From the NCBI GenBank assembly GCA_022703055.1, contig JAKLEP010000003.1, forward strand, positions 86,238 to 150,237: a stretch of DNA of 64,000 bases, written 5' to 3'. This DNA is from Candidatus Omnitrophota bacterium (lineage in GTDB: Bacteria; Omnitrophota; Gorgyraeia; VGKH01). Shown piece after piece: positions 26,406 to 30,351 of this stretch. A program made the position numbers and the translations under genes. The stretch's first letter is position 1, and each line of letters opens with the position of its first letter. Under the pieces are notes generated by a model. It did no database searches. It saw only the letters and a list, made by a program, of their open reading frames with translations, and was not told the DNA's origin.

Positions 26406-27706
26406 TAAAGCTCCTTTTCTATCCTGATAGCGACGGGATAATCCCTAATAACGGCTAATTTATAAATTTTCTCAAGCGCCAAGCGTAAGTTCTTTTCCTT
26501 TGATTCATGGGTCAACATTATAATAGGCACTATTTTAGCTCTTCTTCTTCCTTTTTGAGTCACAGAAGATATGCTTATGCCAAATTTTCCTAAAACGCCT
26601 GCAATTCTTGCCAAGACTCCTGGCTTATCAATCGCCATAAATCTAATGTAATATTTTGATTGGATATCGGCGATCTTAACCAATTTTTCCAATTCCGGCT
26701 TTCTTAAAAACAATTTTTCGCTGAAGGTATTGCTTGAAGACTGCAAATCCCTGGCTAAATCTATCAAATCGCTGGCAACGCCAGATGCAGCAGAAAGCTG
26801 CCCCGCGCCTTGGCCGTAAAGAAGCAAGTCCCCCATCATGTCAGTATTGATGTAAACTGCATTAAAAATTCCGTTGACTGAGGACAGCATATTTTCTTTT
26901 GGCACCATCGTAGGATGGACTCTTACGTCTAGCGCCTTACCTTCCTTTTTTGCGATAGCCAATAATTTAATTACTAAATTCATTTCTTCGGCAAACTTGA
27001 TATCGGAAAGCGAAATCTTAGAGATTCCTTCAATATAAATATCTTCTAATTTGAATAGTTTTCCAAATGCCAAATATACCAAAATCAATAATTTATGGGC
27101 GCTATCAATTCCTTCAATATCCAAAGAAGGGTTTCTTTCGGCGAATCCTTTCTTTTTAGCATCCAAAAGTGCGTTATTAAATGAACATCCTAATTCTGAC
27201 ATCCTGGTAAGGACAAAATTGGAAGTCCCGTTTATCACGCCAAATATACCTTCGACTTTATTAGCTATTATTGATTCGCGCAAAGTCTTTATAATGGGGA
27301 TGCCGGCACCGACAGAGGCTTCAAAATAAATATTCCTCTTATAATGCCTGGCGGCTTTGAAGATATCCTTCCCTTCCTGTGCAAGAAGGGCCTTGTTGGC
27401 AGTAACCACGTGCTTCTTCTTGGAAAGAGAATTTATAATTATATCTTTGGCAGGATTGATCCCGCCAATCAACTCCACAACCACATCAATTTCCGGATCG
27501 TTAATGATATCATTGACGTTTTTAGTCTTTATGTATCTGTCCAATTTAACCGGACGGCGAGTAATAAAATCCTTGTCGCATACGCGCTTTACCACAAATT
27601 CAAAACCCGTTTTTTCCTTTATTAAAGATTTTCTTTCTCTTAATATCTTAAGCAGGCCTACGCCTACGGTTCCAAAGCCTACCAGCCCGATATTGATTTT
27701 TTTCAT
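26405..27706 (-). CDS. hom: Homoserine dehydrogenase
   Basis: INIGLVGFGTVG Rossmann motif and a C-terminal ACT domain. The ATG at 27706 forms an ATGA overlap with the PilZ stop. The track start at 27712 is a TTG. Confidence 0.9.
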   Translation of the reverse strand: MKKINIGLVGFGTVGVGLLKILRERKSLIKEKTGFEFVVKRVCDKDFITRRPVKLDRYIKTKNVNDIINDPEIDVVVELIGGINPAKDIIINSLSKKKHVVTANKALLAQEGKDIFKAARHYKRNIYFEASVGAGIPIIKTLRESIIANKVEGIFGVINGTSNFVLTRMSELGCSFNNALLDAKKKGFAERNPSLDIEGIDSAHKLLILVYLAFGKLFKLEDIYIEGISKISLSDIKFAEEMNLVIKLLAIAKKEGKALDVRVHPTMVPKENMLSSVNGIFNAVYINTDMMGDLLLYGQGAGQLSAASGVASDLIDLARDLQSSSNTFSEKLFLRKPELEKLVKIADIQSKYYIRFMAIDKPGVLARIAGVLGKFGISISSVTQKGRRRAKIVPIIMLTHESKEKNLRLALEKIYKLAVIRDYPVAIRIEKEL

Positions 27707-28071
27707 TTCCAACCTTCTCCTTTGGTTTTTCTTACGAAGAAATCGACGGTTTCCTTCAATAATTCCCTGGAAGACACATCCAATTCAACAAAGCTGACAC
27801 GAGTATTGTAAATCAGGCCGTCGACTACAAGCTTTGACTCTATAACCTTAGCCTCAAGGTTAATCCCCATCACGGAAATAGGAGTTTTTAATTCGACCTC
27901 TAAAATAGTCCCTGGAAGGAAATCTTCGGAGGTAGTAAAAAACATGCCGCCTTCTGAGATGTCTTTAATCTGGGAGACTTCGCGTTTACCTTCTTTATTC
28001 TTTACTTTGTAGGTAACTACGAATTGGCGTTTTATTCTTTCATGAGTCCTGCGTTCTTTTTTGTCTGCCAT
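27703..28071 (-). CDS. Single-domain PilZ protein (putative c-di-GMP receptor)
   Basis: RRTHERIKR (RxxxR) and DISEGGMFF (DxSxxG). AAGGAGG lies 6 nt before the ATG at 28071. Confidence 0.75.
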   Translation of the reverse strand: MADKKERRTHERIKRQFVVTYKVKNKEGKREVSQIKDISEGGMFFTTSEDFLPGTILEVELKTPISVMGINLEAKVIESKLVVDGLIYNTRVSFVELDVSSRELLKETVDFFVRKTKGEGWK

Positions 28072-28129
28072 TTTCAACCTCCTTTAAAAGAGATTGCCCT
28101 ATCTTAAGCTGGGTTATTTTTAAATAATC

Positions 28130-28150
28130 GAGTCGGGGAGGCGGGAATTG
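28130..28150 (-). repeat. Diverged third copy (17/21) of the tRNA-Pro 3'-terminal 21-mer
   Basis: Minus strand CAATTCCCGCCTCCCCGACTC against the tRNA's CAAGTCCCACCTCCCCGACCA. It is preceded by the same GAGCCTYGGSACTT + stem motif seen in copy 2. Confidence 0.7.
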
Positions 28151-28205
28151 CGAGCCGCATTTAATTTTATTTCGGCTGCTAAGTCCCAAGGCTCCACCTC
28201 GTCAT

Positions 28206-28475
28206 CTATTTCTTAAGCCGAGTGAAACTGCCTTCTTTCATTAATCTTTTTTTATTCTCTCGGCTAAGAGTTTTAACCTCTATTTCTCGCTTTTTAGCCT
28301 CAGACTGAGATTTAATCTTTTCGGTATATACCAACTTTACTGGCCTTCTTGACCTAGTATATTTGGCTCCGTCTCCCGAATTATGCCGTACTATCCTTTT
28401 CTCTAAGTCTGTAGTAATACCAGTATAAAAAGAGCTATCCGAACACTTAAGAATATATAGATACCAGATTTTCAT
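28206..28475 (-). CDS. GIY-YIG nuclease family protein (UPF0213/COG2827-like)
   Basis: 89 aa from the ATG at 28475. WYLYILKCSDSSFYTGITTDLEKRIVRHNSGDGAKYTRSRRPVKLVY carries the GIY...YIG-type motifs. A GAGGGG SD is upstream. Confidence 0.85.
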   Translation of the reverse strand: MKIWYLYILKCSDSSFYTGITTDLEKRIVRHNSGDGAKYTRSRRPVKLVYTEKIKSQSEAKKREIEVKTLSRENKKRLMKEGSFTRLKK

Positions 28476-28545
28476 TCCGTTTGCCCCTCGCTGTATAATT
28501 AAAAACAATTCAGCTCGGGATCATTTTTGCTGAAAAATAAAACTA

Positions 28546-28573
28546 TAGCAAAATGGTCGGGGAGGTGGGACTT
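28546..28573 (-). repeat. Exact 28-nt duplicate of the tRNA-Pro 3' end plus 7 downstream nt (same sequence as 28731..28758)
   Basis: agcaaaatggtcggggaggtgggacttg occurs identically at both positions on the plus strand. Confidence 0.9.
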
Positions 28574-28737
28574 GCGAGTCGCCTCCTCTTTTATTCTAGC
28601 GACGAAGTGCCGAGGCTCTTAATGCAAATTTAAGAGCTGAGGCAAACCTTCAGTCTTTCAACTTGTTGTCCCTCGTTGTCAAAATAAACCCGTGAACAGC
28701 TCGGGATCATTTTGCTTAAAATCAAAGCAAAAGCAAA

Positions 28738-28816
28738 ATGGTCGGGGAGGTGGGACTTGAACCCACGACCTTTTGAACCCCATTCAAACGCGCTAAGCCA
28801 AACTGCGCTACTCCCC
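28738..28816 (-). tRNA. tRNA-Pro (anticodon GGG), CCA encoded
   Basis: Cloverleaf: CGGGGAG-TA-GCGC-AGTTTGGCTTA-GCGC-G-TTTGA-ATGGGGT-TCAAA-AGGTC-GTGGG-TTCAAGT-CCCAC-CTCCCCG-A-CCA (79 nt). Confidence 0.9.
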
Positions 28817-28880
28817 GAATAGCCATAATTTTCAATTTTTGCGATTCGATACCGAGCCTGCTAAGGCGAGGTGCCGATTT

Positions 28881-29876
28881 TTAAAATTCGCTCTTCCTTC
28901 GTCTTAGCATCAAATCGTCAACTGCCCGAATAGGCGTTTTATTTTTATATAAAACTAAGTATATCTCTTTAATAATGGGCATATCGACTTTGTGTTTACG
29001 GCTTAAGAAATATGCTGATTTTGCCGTTGGAACTCCCTCGGCAACCATCTCTGTATCCTTTAAAATATCTTTGAGTTTCCTGCCGCGGCCAATCTGTTCA
29101 CCAACATATCTGTTTCGGCTAAACGGGCTGATGCAGGTAGTGACTAAATCTCCCAAGCCGCTTATCCCACTAAAAGTCTTAGCTTCAGCGCCCAAAACAA
29201 CACCCAGACGAGTTATTTCGGCGAGACCGCGAGACAGAATCGCTGCTTTAGTATTAGTGCCAAACCTTAATCCATCCGAAATTCCGCAGGCAATAGCGAT
29301 AATATTCTTAAGGCTGCCTCCTAATTCCACACCGATGACATCGCTATTGGTATAAACCCTAAATCTATCAGTAATCAAAATATCCTGAATTTCTTTTGCC
29401 AGTTTTATATCTTTGCTGGCCACAACTGCGGTAGTGGGGACGTATCTTGCAACTTCATAGGCGATAGTTGGCCCAGACAATACCGCTAATTTAACTTTCC
29501 CCAATACGTCAAAGACGACTTCCGACATACGTTTTAATGTTGATGTCTCAATTCCTTTAACCACGCTTAAGAATATTTTACCGGGCTCGTTGTATATCCT
29601 TAACTTAATCAAAACATTCCTTAGATATTGCGAAGGGACTGCCAGAATAATCAAATCCGCATCCAAAACAGCTTCTTTTAAGCTATCAGTAATCAAAATT
29701 CCTTTCGGGATTTTTACGCCGCTCAAGAATTTTGTATTTATCCTTCTTTTATCCAAAAGTCCGGCGTAATCTTTGAAGGCGCTCCAAAGTTTTATCTTGT
29801 ATCCTTTTTTATGAAGAATGATGGCCAAGGTTGTTCCCCAACCACCGTCTCCTATAACTGAAATATTTTTTATCAT
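28881..29876 (-). CDS. gpsA: NAD(P)H-dependent glycerol-3-phosphate dehydrogenase
   Basis: ISVIGDGGWGTTLA and GSLKNIIAIACG motifs; 331 aa. Confidence 0.9.
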   Translation of the reverse strand: MIKNISVIGDGGWGTTLAIILHKKGYKIKLWSAFKDYAGLLDKRRINTKFLSGVKIPKGILITDSLKEAVLDADLIILAVPSQYLRNVLIKLRIYNEPGKIFLSVVKGIETSTLKRMSEVVFDVLGKVKLAVLSGPTIAYEVARYVPTTAVVASKDIKLAKEIQDILITDRFRVYTNSDVIGVELGGSLKNIIAIACGISDGLRFGTNTKAAILSRGLAEITRLGVVLGAEAKTFSGISGLGDLVTTCISPFSRNRYVGEQIGRGRKLKDILKDTEMVAEGVPTAKSAYFLSRKHKVDMPIIKEIYLVLYKNKTPIRAVDDLMLRRRKSEF

Positions 29877-29885
29877 ATTAGTATT

Positions 29886-30266
29886 TTATTTAAAAACTAT
29901 CCCTGGTATAGGTTTTTCTTCCCTGGTTATAAATCTGACTCCAGTATCATAATTCGAGGCAGAAAGTTTTTTCTGCCAGACGACCTTACCCAAAATTCCC
30001 TGCTGAATAACCACACTGTTCTTTTCAATCTCTTTACAAAGCTCAATGGCTCCGGCATCTAATTTTAACCAAAGCACTGTATCCTTGGCGACTTTTTCAT
30101 TTAAATTACAACGGAGCCCGGAATTGCTGATATCTCTCGTATAGCCTTCAAGAATTTTACAGATAGTTGTCCGTTTGCAAAGTTTATACATCAACGGCTT
30201 GCGATAGCTCAAACGGATGAATCTTCTGCGCTCTGCACCTGTAAATTTCTTGCTTTTTGCTTTCAT
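29886..30266 (-). CDS. Single-domain PilZ protein
   Basis: ERRRFIRL (RxxxR) and RDISNSGLR (DxSxxG). The start is taken as the ATG at 30266, because the longer track ORF reads through tRNA-Gly. Confidence 0.7.
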   Translation of the reverse strand: MKAKSKKFTGAERRRFIRLSYRKPLMYKLCKRTTICKILEGYTRDISNSGLRCNLNEKVAKDTVLWLKLDAGAIELCKEIEKNSVVIQQGILGKVVWQKKLSASNYDTGVRFITREEKPIPGIVFK

Positions 30267-30275
30267 TTGATTATA

Positions 30276-30351
30276 TGGAGCGGGCGATGGGGATCGAACC
30301 CACGACATCTTGCTTGGAAGGCAAGTGTTCTACCAACTGAACTACGCCCGC
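30276..30351 (-). tRNA. tRNA-Gly (anticodon TCC), CCA encoded
   Basis: GCGGGCG-TA-GTTC-AGTTGGTA-GAAC-A-CTTGC-CTTCCAA-GCAAG-ATGTC-GTGGG-TTCGATC-CCCAT-CGCCCGC-T-CCA. Confidence 0.92.

Follow-up and report, generated by a model that had tools for sequence, protein, structure and literature searches.

Tandem hairpin-bounded units with a UPF0213-type GIY-YIG nuclease gene at a tRNA-Pro gene of an Omnitrophota bacterium: probable copies of a mobile element of tRNA gene ends

SegB of phages T4 and T6 is a GIY-YIG enzyme of ~220 aa that belongs to the I-TevI-like branch and has a C-terminal DNA-binding region. Its gene lies among phage tRNA genes; the enzyme recognizes the TpsiC stem-loop motif of tRNA as DNA and homes with the flanking tRNA genes, replacing the tRNA markers of the recipient (PMC2330249). 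SegB also drives recombination-dependent tandem amplification of segments that hold tRNA genes and segB, and a C-terminally truncated SegB is non-toxic, indicating that the C-terminal part is needed for activity (PMC13096335). Here we describe a locus of similar logic on a bacterial chromosome, in a 64,000-nt stretch of DNA from a Candidatus Omnitrophota bacterium (hereafter the window). At this locus a tRNA-Pro(GGG) gene is accompanied by repeats of its own 3' end, by inverted hairpins, and by a gene for an 89-aa GIY-YIG nuclease of the UPF0213 family. We concluded that the locus probably holds two tandem units of a mobile, nuclease-driven selfish element that lives at tRNA gene ends.

The likeness to SegB is one of logic and not of family. 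In both cases a free-standing GIY-YIG gene sits beside tRNA genes, and the TpsiC stem-loop targeted by SegB is exactly where the repeats of the 3'-side elements start here; the family studied here also shows a tandem array and a tRNA allele that goes with occupancy. However, SegB is a phage protein, whereas the protein studied here is a single-domain UPF0213/YhbQ (SLX1-like) protein on a bacterial chromosome, and SegB loci as described are without hairpin inverted repeats, tRNA-fragment repeats, or miniatures that lack an open reading frame (ORF) (PMC2330249, PMC13096335). Free-standing homing endonuclease genes in general share presence/absence and horizontal spread with this element, but the sequence-reading DNA-binding domain typical of homing endonucleases is absent from the 89-aa protein.

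To our knowledge, UPF0213/YhbQ proteins occur throughout bacteria and archaea, with two structures solved and no known function. The searchable full-text literature documents no biological role or mobility for bacterial members, and our full-text searches found no description of a UPF0213 element linked to tRNA ends. The window's protein is by sequence a member of this group (UPF0213/YhbQ/YazA, COG2827), the bacterial kin of the nuclease domain of eukaryotic SLX1. SLX1 cleaves in a structure-selective manner (PMC7017083), which fits a small protein that would have to read DNA shape, e.g. hairpins, and not a long sequence. By protein family the nuclease is a plain UPF0213 member, and in behavior the nearest known systems are free-standing homing endonuclease genes like segB; the small tRNA-end element family is previously undescribed, and the nuclease-driven selfish element is a kind already known.

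Other described elements share some of its parts. Like the repetitive extragenic palindrome (REP)/REPIN-RAYT and IS200/IS605 systems, the element places a small nuclease gene between inverted hairpins that are conserved in structure and variable in sequence, and it too has non-autonomous miniatures and a solo hairpin (L088:180-222). Those systems use an HUH/Y1 transposase in place of a GIY-YIG enzyme, and the hairpin consensus here (TCCC-GA-G...C-GA-GGGA) is its own, as are the strict tie to tRNA gene ends and the duplicated tRNA fragment. There is also no sign of the tens to hundreds of dispersed copies known from REPIN-RAYT, all copies in the 64-kb window being at the tRNA locus. Terminal inverted repeat transposons and their miniature derivatives (MITEs) have inverted-repeat ends as well, but DDE, HUH and serine/tyrosine recombinases are absent here, the sole enzyme being a GIY-YIG hydrolytic nuclease; their multiple dispersed copies are likewise not seen, since the five hairpins of the window lie at one tRNA locus.

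Architecture of the tRNA-Pro locus and its hairpins

A full unit begins with a tRNA 3' end (TpsiC loop to discriminator/CCA), a variable hairpin H1, and a sense-strand hairpin with tandem G.A mismatches (GA-hairpin) that contains the ribosome-binding site; it continues with the ~90-aa UPF0213-type GIY-YIG gene, an inverted GA-hairpin that overlaps the final codons, a variable stem-loop H2, and a second tRNA 3' end. Coordinates, collected in Table 1, are positions within the window, and all features of the locus are on the minus strand. Relative loci that were fetched and compared with the window carry L-numbers (L008, L088, L109 etc.).

An exact 28-nt repeat of the tRNA end had been reported in the original prediction, made from the sequence alone. 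The repeat is real, with coordinates that were off by one: 28732-28759 equals 28547-28574, whereas the first base of the predicted pair is A versus T. By a rough estimate, ~1e-8 such repeats are expected by chance in 64 kb. The third copy of the 21-mer lies where it had been placed and matches at 17/21. This copy is orthologous to the intact copy CAAGTCCCACCTCCCCGACTC of L090, and no fourth copy was found at ≤6 mismatches within the window. After both the tRNA and copy 2 we confirmed the series TTTTGCT-N15-AGCAAAA, TGATCCCGAGCTG and CGAGGG (2 matches in the window vs 0.14 expected). The motifs and stems described before copies 2 and 3 (GAGCCTCGGCACTT with GTCGC/GCGAC and GAGCCTTGGGACTT with AGCCG/CGGCT, respectively) are also present, within right ends that are 75% identical over 63 nt and differ in their H2 stems.

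What did not stand was the treatment of TGATCCCGAGCTG, the GAGGG Shine-Dalgarno sequence and GAGCCTYGGSACTT as separate motifs; they are two arms and an inverted copy of one hairpin. Comparison with relatives showed that TGATCCCGAG and the (C)GAGGG Shine-Dalgarno sequence are the two arms of a single hairpin with tandem G·A, and that GAGCCTYGGSACTT together with the final codons of the ORF is the same GA-hairpin inverted. That is, because GAGCCTYGGSACTT is an inverted copy of the left hairpin, the nuclease ORF is bracketed by hairpin inverted repeats. The left GA-hairpin of unit 1 includes a Shine-Dalgarno-like GAGGG; in unit 2 the nuclease gene has its ribosome-binding region in the 3' arm of the left GA-hairpin (CGAGGGG), and the final codons and stop of the ORF overlap the right GA-hairpin.

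The GA-hairpin has the form TCCC-GA-G, a stem of 4-6 bp, a loop, the matching stem, and C-GA-GGGA. Its stems covary. Among 22 copies, 94.4% of cells were paired (75.3% when shuffled), double-sided changes numbered 39 (10.7 when shuffled), and the covariation score was 0.536 compared with 0.154 for shuffled alignments (0/500 shuffles reached 0.536; slid controls ≤0.128). The tandem G.A/A.G is near-invariant (21/22 copies, the exception being L095_H0, with A for the first G). Changes in the inner stem are from Watson-Crick to Watson-Crick pairs only, with 0 G-U pairs in 88 cells. H1 and H2 are conserved in structure only. The H1 of unit 1 spans from the CA of the tRNA's CCA to the TG of TGATCCC, and nine other loci have a hairpin with a different stem sequence at this position; H2, located between the right GA-hairpin and the tRNA-end copy, holds the compensatory stems of the original prediction and has stems that vary by locus (GCTTC/GAAGC, GCCGC/GCGGC, GCCTTTGC/GCAAAGGC).

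A covariance model of the GA-hairpin (R1) was used to search the window with filters off. It found five copies, all at the tRNA-Pro locus, and the next best match had E 0.28. Three of the five were outside the training set of R1, namely both decayed right ends and H0 (E 1.3e-4, 0.0019 and 0.0045). The last of these is the related motif noticed earlier upstream of the intact tRNA, which is therefore real, as a degenerate GA-hairpin. Its G.A strand is the + strand, so that it is inverted relative to the tRNA, and equivalents upstream of the tRNA occur in L088 (28.3 bits), L095 (36.1 bits) and L126 (37.1 bits). The clade loci yielded 31 copies in 79 kb. The empty-site loci L109 and L112 had no GA-hairpin, nor did 408 kb of control loci with other GIY-YIG genes of the wider family, and regular-expression and covariance-model searches gave none elsewhere in the window. 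Given these absences from the controls and from the rest of the window, a dispersed population of REP-like hairpins was rejected. Because the nuclease is an 89-aa SLX1-type protein without a DNA-binding domain, the GA-hairpins are the most plausible structural recognition sites (PMC7017083). They are probably recognized by this small domain-less nuclease, and the left one, which holds the ribosome-binding site, probably also throttles translation of the nuclease.

The intact 89-aa ORF in unit 2 is a GIY-YIG gene, as had been proposed. It matches PF01541 with 73.7 bits (cut-off 22.6) over residues 4-76 of 89, and its best matches in the Protein Data Bank, 1zg2 and 1ywl, are both UPF0213 proteins (E ~1e-21). 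Of the catalytic residues, Y17, R27, H31 and E64 do not vary in a 32-sequence alignment, and conservation of Y7 is ≥90%. The protein is a stand-alone single domain with no appended DNA-binding domain; its relatives have 79-120 aa. Its dN/dS is about 0.13-0.16 (about 0.13 vs L090), which is purifying selection; judged by the conserved catalytic residues and the low dN/dS, the nuclease looks functional. It had no PADLOC or NCBIfam match, and a reading as a defence system was dropped.

The two units differ in age and content. Unit 2 is the orthologue of the L090 element, with which it shares the ...RLKK* ending, the 3' arm of H2 and the flank after the repeat; unlike in L090, its right hairpin and repeat copy are decayed. 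Unit 1 lies between the tRNA and unit 2 and has a perfect repeat copy, a distinct H2 stem and a GFPRL*-type ORF end. The collapsed reading frame TTG-AAA-GAC-TGA reported for it is present, and AAGGTTTGCCTCAGCTCTTAA in this remnant corresponds to the final codons ...GFPRL* of relatives. Unit 1 is thus an ORF-less derivative by internal deletion, and unit 2 is the older, ORF-bearing unit with a decaying right end.

How the array came to have two units bears on its origin only, and not on the nature of the element. In-situ tandem amplification is a possible origin that we regard as somewhat unlikely: unequal crossing-over or break-induced repair between the 21-28-nt direct repeats of a single resident unit would have made the second unit, and one ORF would then have been lost by internal deletion. 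The units share the repeat plus 7 nt exactly and have identical TGATCCCGAGCTG, SegB-driven amplification of a tRNA plus nuclease segment is documented, and several short contigs break off within the repeat zone, a pattern that a variable copy number would produce. The left parts are 78% identical, which is no closer or further than either is to L096 (77%), so this figure is uninformative. Amplification is harder to reconcile with the divergent right ends and H2 stems described above, and with the ORF ends, that of unit 1 being GFPRL*-like whereas the ORFs of the window and L090 end in SFTRLKK* and SFPRLKK*. In addition, the decayed repeat is the one far from the tRNA and the perfect one lies near it, the order expected if new units enter beside the tRNA. 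Because of this order, and of the H2 and ORF-end differences, a later separate insertion of unit 1 beside the tRNA is favored. The serial-insertion model of the original prediction is supported at the level of the element family, with insertion and unequal crossing-over both still in play for the window's own units.

Table 1. Features of the tRNA-Pro locus in the order of the minus strand
Feature	Position	Strand	Evidence or remark
H0, degenerate GA-hairpin upstream of tRNA	28848..28875	+	CGGCACCTCGCCTTAGCAGGC motif of the original prediction; R1 18.4 bits, E 0.0045
tRNA-Pro(GGG), intact, A-type allele, CCA encoded	28739..28817	-	ARAGORN; Rfam RF00005 61.8 bits
Repeat copy 1, last 21 nt of tRNA-Pro, CAAGTCCCACCTCCCCGACCA	28739-28759	-	part of intact tRNA
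H1 of unit 1, CATTTTGCT...AGCAAAATG	28708..28740	-	fold -10.0 kcal/mol
Left GA-hairpin of unit 1, TCCC-GA-G...C-GA-GGGA	28667..28708	-	R1 36.9 bits, E 2e-8
ORF remnant of unit 1	28630..28661	-	TTGAAAGACTG (start, MKDW-like) fused to AAGGTTTGCCTCAGCTCTTAA
Right GA-hairpin of unit 1, inverted, partly decayed, contains GAGCCTCGGCACTT	28606..28646	+	R1 23.7 bits, E 1.3e-4
H2 of unit 1, variable stem-loop GTCGC...GCGAC	28578..28603	-	stems at this position differ by locus
Repeat copy 2, 21-mer (28554-28574, 21/21) plus 7-nt trailer	28547..28574	-	exact 28-nt repeat of 28732-28759
H1 of unit 2, CATTTTGCT...AGCAAAAATG	28522..28555	-	position shared with other loci
Left GA-hairpin of unit 2	28482..28522	-	R1 37.6 bits, E 1.3e-8
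GIY-YIG nuclease gene, 89 aa, UPF0213/YhbQ type, single domain	28206..28475	-	PF01541 E 1.5e-20
Right GA-hairpin of unit 2, inverted, decayed, contains GAGCCTTGGGACTT	28182..28227	+	R1 19.7 bits, E 0.0019
H2 of unit 2, stem-loop AGCCG...CGGCT	28153..28177	-	precedes repeat copy 3
Repeat copy 3, decayed tRNA 3'-end copy, 17/21, no CCA	28130..28150	-	followed by native flank and PilZ gene

Occupied, empty and remnant sites in relatives

The same architecture was found at 58-76% amino-acid identity in L088, L090, L091, L095, L096, L116, L115 and L008, and at 60% in L126 (alignment A1). The syntenic GpsA-tRNA-Pro(GGG)-PilZ-Hom locus holds one unit in L088 and L091 and two in the window; L090 has the same right end at this locus, on a contig cut on the left. 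Further tRNA-associated copies, which the original prediction had envisaged, exist at other genes. The cassette follows tRNA-Pro(CGG) in a different gene neighborhood (L095, L096), tRNA-Pro(TGG) (L116-119; in L116:1523-2106 it lies between this gene and tRNA-Arg(TCT)), tRNA-Lys(CTT) (L115, where the downstream copy is the Lys 3' end GACTCCAACATGGCCCA) and an unidentified tRNA (L008, where the downstream copy is that tRNA's own end, CGAGTCCTGTACCGCCCAC).

At tRNA-Ser(TGA) the arrangement is a mirror image: in L126 the nuclease gene is preceded by a 21-nt fragment of the tRNA 5' end and followed by the intact tRNA, the fragment being part of a perfect 64-nt direct repeat (1008-1071 = 1445-1508). 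Along L126:976-1577 the order is inverted hairpin, small hairpin, 21-nt tRNA 5' fragment, then left hairpin, nuclease gene, inverted hairpin, small hairpin and intact tRNA-Ser. The element family can therefore sit on either side of a tRNA.

In all, at least six different tRNA genes are occupied, each with a flanking tRNA-end copy (the 3' end at five, the 5' end at tRNA-Ser). The copy is the Pro-type 21 nt at all three Pro genes; the Lys, Ser and unidentified tRNAs have their own end duplicated. These flanking repeats comprise 17-24 nt of tRNA end, and at some loci 57-64 nt including element sequence. The downstream copy in L095 is decayed (CAAGTCTACTCGCCCTAGC). Among all tRNAs in all fetched loci, none outside the clade loci had a downstream copy of its own 3' end.

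The link between COG2827-type nucleases and a tRNA gene end that had been suggested holds for one small clade and not for COG2827/UPF0213 at large. The nuclease gene adjoins a tRNA in 9/9 assessable clade loci, compared with 3/79 loci of the wider family that lie within 150 nt of a tRNA, none of them with direct repeats or hairpins. A general tRNA linkage of COG2827 was rejected on these figures; UPF0213 at large differs from the clade in all these features, with 0 hairpin matches in the 408 kb of control loci.

Presence/absence variation at the orthologous locus, another expectation of the original prediction, was found as empty, single-unit and remnant variants. The site is empty in L109, the nearest relative on a long contig (Hom 81% identical to the window), and in L112-114; these have GpsA-tRNA-Pro-PilZ without nuclease gene or hairpin. 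A remnant of only tRNA, H1 and left hairpin is left in L110/111. MITE-like ORF-less derivatives, as had been supposed for the window, occur independently in L106 and L108, which have both ends and the last five codons after an internal deletion like that of unit 1 (L108 keeps GGTTTCCCTCGGCTC, L106 keeps GGTTTTCCTCGCCTC).

Two discrete alleles of tRNA-Pro(GGG) were distinguished (window 28739-28817 vs L109:2531-2608 and L112:2176-2251). The A-type reads CGGGGAGTAG...CCCACCTCCCCGACCA with CCA encoded and the B-type CGGGGCGTGG...CCCAGCGCCCCGA without CCA; the two differ at several positions, mostly by compensating changes in paired stems. The A-type occurs, identical, in five occupied or remnant GGG lineages and the B-type in two empty lineages, which is a correlation only. 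The window's tRNA equals that of L088, L091 and L110 except for one extra D-loop base. Neighboring tRNA-Gly genes differ freely among A- and B-type loci, and in the Hom tree the A-type pair of window and L090 is nested among B-type relatives, so that the allele tracks occupancy and not host.

Horizontal spread was evident from synonymous sites. Between L090 and L088 the synonymous difference was 0.40 for the nuclease gene (bootstrap 0.28-0.53), compared with 0.79 (0.66-0.94) for the adjacent PilZ gene and 0.85 (0.79-0.92) for Hom, and the intervals of nuclease and flanking genes do not overlap. Such low synonymous divergence of the nuclease gene relative to its host neighbors indicates that the element has spread horizontally. 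The nuclease of L090 differs by 0.45 from that of L096, which is at a different tRNA-Pro gene. The nuclease protein tree and the Hom tree are also in conflict: by Hom (93%) the window and L090 are sister hosts, but their nucleases are just 75% identical.

A virus as carrier was rejected. Viral protein relatives are ≤57% identical and without the hairpin, and IMG/VR gave 0 matches to the right-end pattern. A metagenome scan with the pattern GGGACTT-N12-42-CTCGCAAGTCCCAC gave nine matches, three of them real; the element is therefore rare in that collection.

Proposed mechanism and competing explanations

How the element would move we infer by analogy with SegB. The nuclease would break DNA in or beside the tRNA gene, in the TpsiC-loop region for 3'-side elements and in the D-loop region for the tRNA-Ser variant. 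Recombination-dependent repair would then copy the cassette in, using as homology arms the tRNA body on one side and the short copy of the tRNA end on the other; the tRNA would stay functional, the neighboring tRNA allele would be co-converted, and tandem units could form by repeated insertion or by unequal exchange between repeats. A role as homology arm would explain why the end copies are intact in most elements (21/21 in 7 of 9 Pro-type copies) despite saturating neutral divergence, and why the end copy matches the target tRNA. The insertion model of the original prediction is supported for the element family, given the empty sites and the other signs of mobility; that the element targets and regenerates the tRNA 3' end is something we infer.

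Several points weigh against a mobile element of this kind. For its mechanism the model leans on analogy. The 89-aa single-domain protein has no evident way to read a site of 21 bp. Terminal inverted repeats are dispensable for a classical homing endonuclease, and homing alone leaves the GA-hairpins unexplained. With a target inside the tRNA, the regenerated tRNA should stay cleavable, and the model does not account for its escape. There are no dispersed copies of the element within the 64-kb window, and what is known of the family comes to about 19 protein clusters and about a dozen loci, all metagenomic. The element is at one same locus across hosts with Hom identities of 56-64%, and much of its history may therefore be vertical. 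In L116 the downstream copy CAAGTCCCACCTCCCCGAC is 2 nt apart from the end of the adjacent tRNA, CGAGTCCCAGCTCCCCGACCA, and the downstream copy of the window and L090 is A-type though their nearest empty relatives are B-type; for both reasons the right-hand copy is not simply the displaced native 3' end. Besides the L116 mismatch, the model leaves unaccounted the extra hairpin upstream of several occupied tRNAs and the 13-14-nt 5' duplications in L096 and L115.

We tentatively put forward a further view, doubtful as it is at this stage: that these elements form a new prokaryotic class of mobile element whose sole enzyme, a free-standing GIY-YIG nuclease of the SLX1/YhbQ type, acts by structure and not by sequence. 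The nuclease would recognize the tandem-G.A hairpins at the element's ends as well as loops extruded from tRNA genes (TpsiC or D), and a cut there would be followed by host recombination that installs the cassette and the duplicated tRNA end. If true, a UPF0213 protein would have its first biological function, and transposition or homing would have a route without transposase, integrase or reverse transcriptase, in an element that can carry cargo such as the PD-T7-4-like defence gene of L008.

A different account of the nuclease gene is that it is a domesticated, immobile host gene linked to the tRNA, its presence and absence reflecting gene loss only. The hairpins would then be RNA-level signals for trailer processing, for sequestration of the ribosome-binding site, and for stabilizing the mRNA 3' end by a tRNA-like tail. 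We consider this improbable. The GpsA-tRNA-Pro-PilZ-Hom synteny across distant hosts speaks for it, as do the purifying selection on the nuclease, the ribosome-binding site inside the left hairpin, and the start of H1 exactly at the tRNA's CCA; there is no consensus promoter just upstream of the ORF and no terminator-like site, which fits read-through from the tRNA. However, the right hairpin is inverted, and an mRNA would carry U.C/C.U mismatches there in place of the near-invariant G.A/A.G, which points to a role at the DNA level or a strand-specific role. The Watson-Crick-only changes of the inner stems (0 G-U in 88 cells) count against this account as well. Moreover, the cassette occurs at six tRNA genes with tRNA-end copies, once in mirror orientation; the synonymous-site incongruence with flanking genes indicates transfer; ORF-less units retain both ends; and one element has an unrelated cargo gene.

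Tyrosine-integrase elements are classically marked by direct repeats of a tRNA 3' end beginning in the TpsiC loop, and the repeats here could in principle be the attL and attR of an island or prophage that left the nuclease behind as cargo. The locus resembles such islands in having the repeat at both borders and the tRNA kept intact. We judged this relic very improbable. At the examined loci there is no integrase or other island gene, and no ORF between the repeats besides the GIY-YIG gene, except for a DUF4145 cargo gene in L008. The same cassette of about 0.2-0.45 kb (1.1 kb with cargo in L008, i.e. 0.2-1.1 kb overall, compared with several kb or more for islands) recurs at ten independent loci on six tRNA genes. 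It has conserved inverted hairpins adjoining the repeats and a mirror 5'-side variant, and is absent from viral contigs.

An assembly artefact by collapsed or mis-joined repeats, the risk named in the original prediction, is suggested by the short contigs L004, L005 and L007 that start inside the repeat zone and can be practically dismissed, because the sequence is identical across all three repeat copies in four assemblies from different samples and pipelines (JGI 3300010429, ENA ERZ27257456, JGI 3300025706 and Logan SRR4244739) and other species show the architecture again in unrelated assemblies. Seven contigs from different samples are 100% identical over the 841-nt region or over what they cover of it.

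We return to the mobile, nuclease-driven element and what it would mean. The conserved DNA context of the clade (hairpins, tRNA-end repeats, empty sites, miniatures) suggests the probable substrate of the nuclease, so that UPF0213 function becomes testable with a handful of oligonucleotides. The idea of a nuclease riding on tRNA genes would be extended from the larger SegB of T-even phages to bacterial chromosomes and a minimal 89-residue enzyme, and a class of tRNA-fragment 'pseudogenes' that annotation pipelines otherwise ascribe to integrase elements would be explained. There is a substantial chance that the element becomes a new class once its mechanism is known. Of practical interest is an element of ~0.4 kb, capable of carrying cargo, that would target conserved tRNA genes and leave them active.

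Further observations

The cargo-bearing element L008:1-1125 (GenBank JABMQK010000015.1, metagenome-assembled genome 'bacterium isolate bin.343') is 1.1 kb long, with an unidentified tRNA (3' end) on one side and a threonyl-tRNA synthetase gene on the other. Between the left hairpin and the nuclease gene it encodes, as cargo, a DUF4145 protein of 201 aa; this protein matches PD-T7-4, a candidate anti-phage protein of PADLOC (E 5.5e-10).

A well-formed solo GA-hairpin (L088:180-222, 39.3 bits) lies upstream of a thymidylate synthase gene, away from nuclease genes, which hints that the GA-hairpin can exist or spread alone. The leader GA-hairpin of L095:2943-2988 is inverted and has degenerate left-type boxes on either side, which looks like the insertion of one hairpin into another's loop. 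The GGGA of GGGACTT has two mutually exclusive pairings, with TCCC at the ORF end (right GA-hairpin) or with AAGTCCC of the tRNA-end copy (long H2); in the window these sites are 28181-28187, 28219-28222 and 28142-28148, and relatives have equivalents.

An Rfam scan of 27500-29500 (E≤10) gave the tRNA alone above its gathering score, the three other matches being far below and chance-like, and a known structured RNA, including a group I intron, was rejected. A scan for sigma-70 promoters and terminators found 4 weak promoter-like sites (2.0 expected) and 0 terminators, which is not informative. Readings as integron attC, CRISPR, toxin-antitoxin or group I intron were dropped, as the locus has no defining feature of these.

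The short contigs L004, L005, L007 and L090, from other samples, all start in the repeat or leader zone, as expected if assemblers break at repeats or copy number varies. Upstream of the occupied tRNA, 13-14 nt of that tRNA's 5' end are duplicated in L096:2769-2837 and L115:18-101 (exactly in L096: CGGGGAGTAGCGCA), and a conserved hairpin, TCCGCCAYTAAAG..TTGGCGGA, comes next; this hairpin occurs without the duplicate in L116 (~1471-1493), and a short form of it is the H1 of L088. Duplicate and hairpin may be the scar of a 5'-side insertion as in L126. Finally, the GpsA-tRNA-Pro locus is flanked by two small PilZ-domain genes (window 27703-28071 and 29886-30308), which are kept in all related genomes examined.

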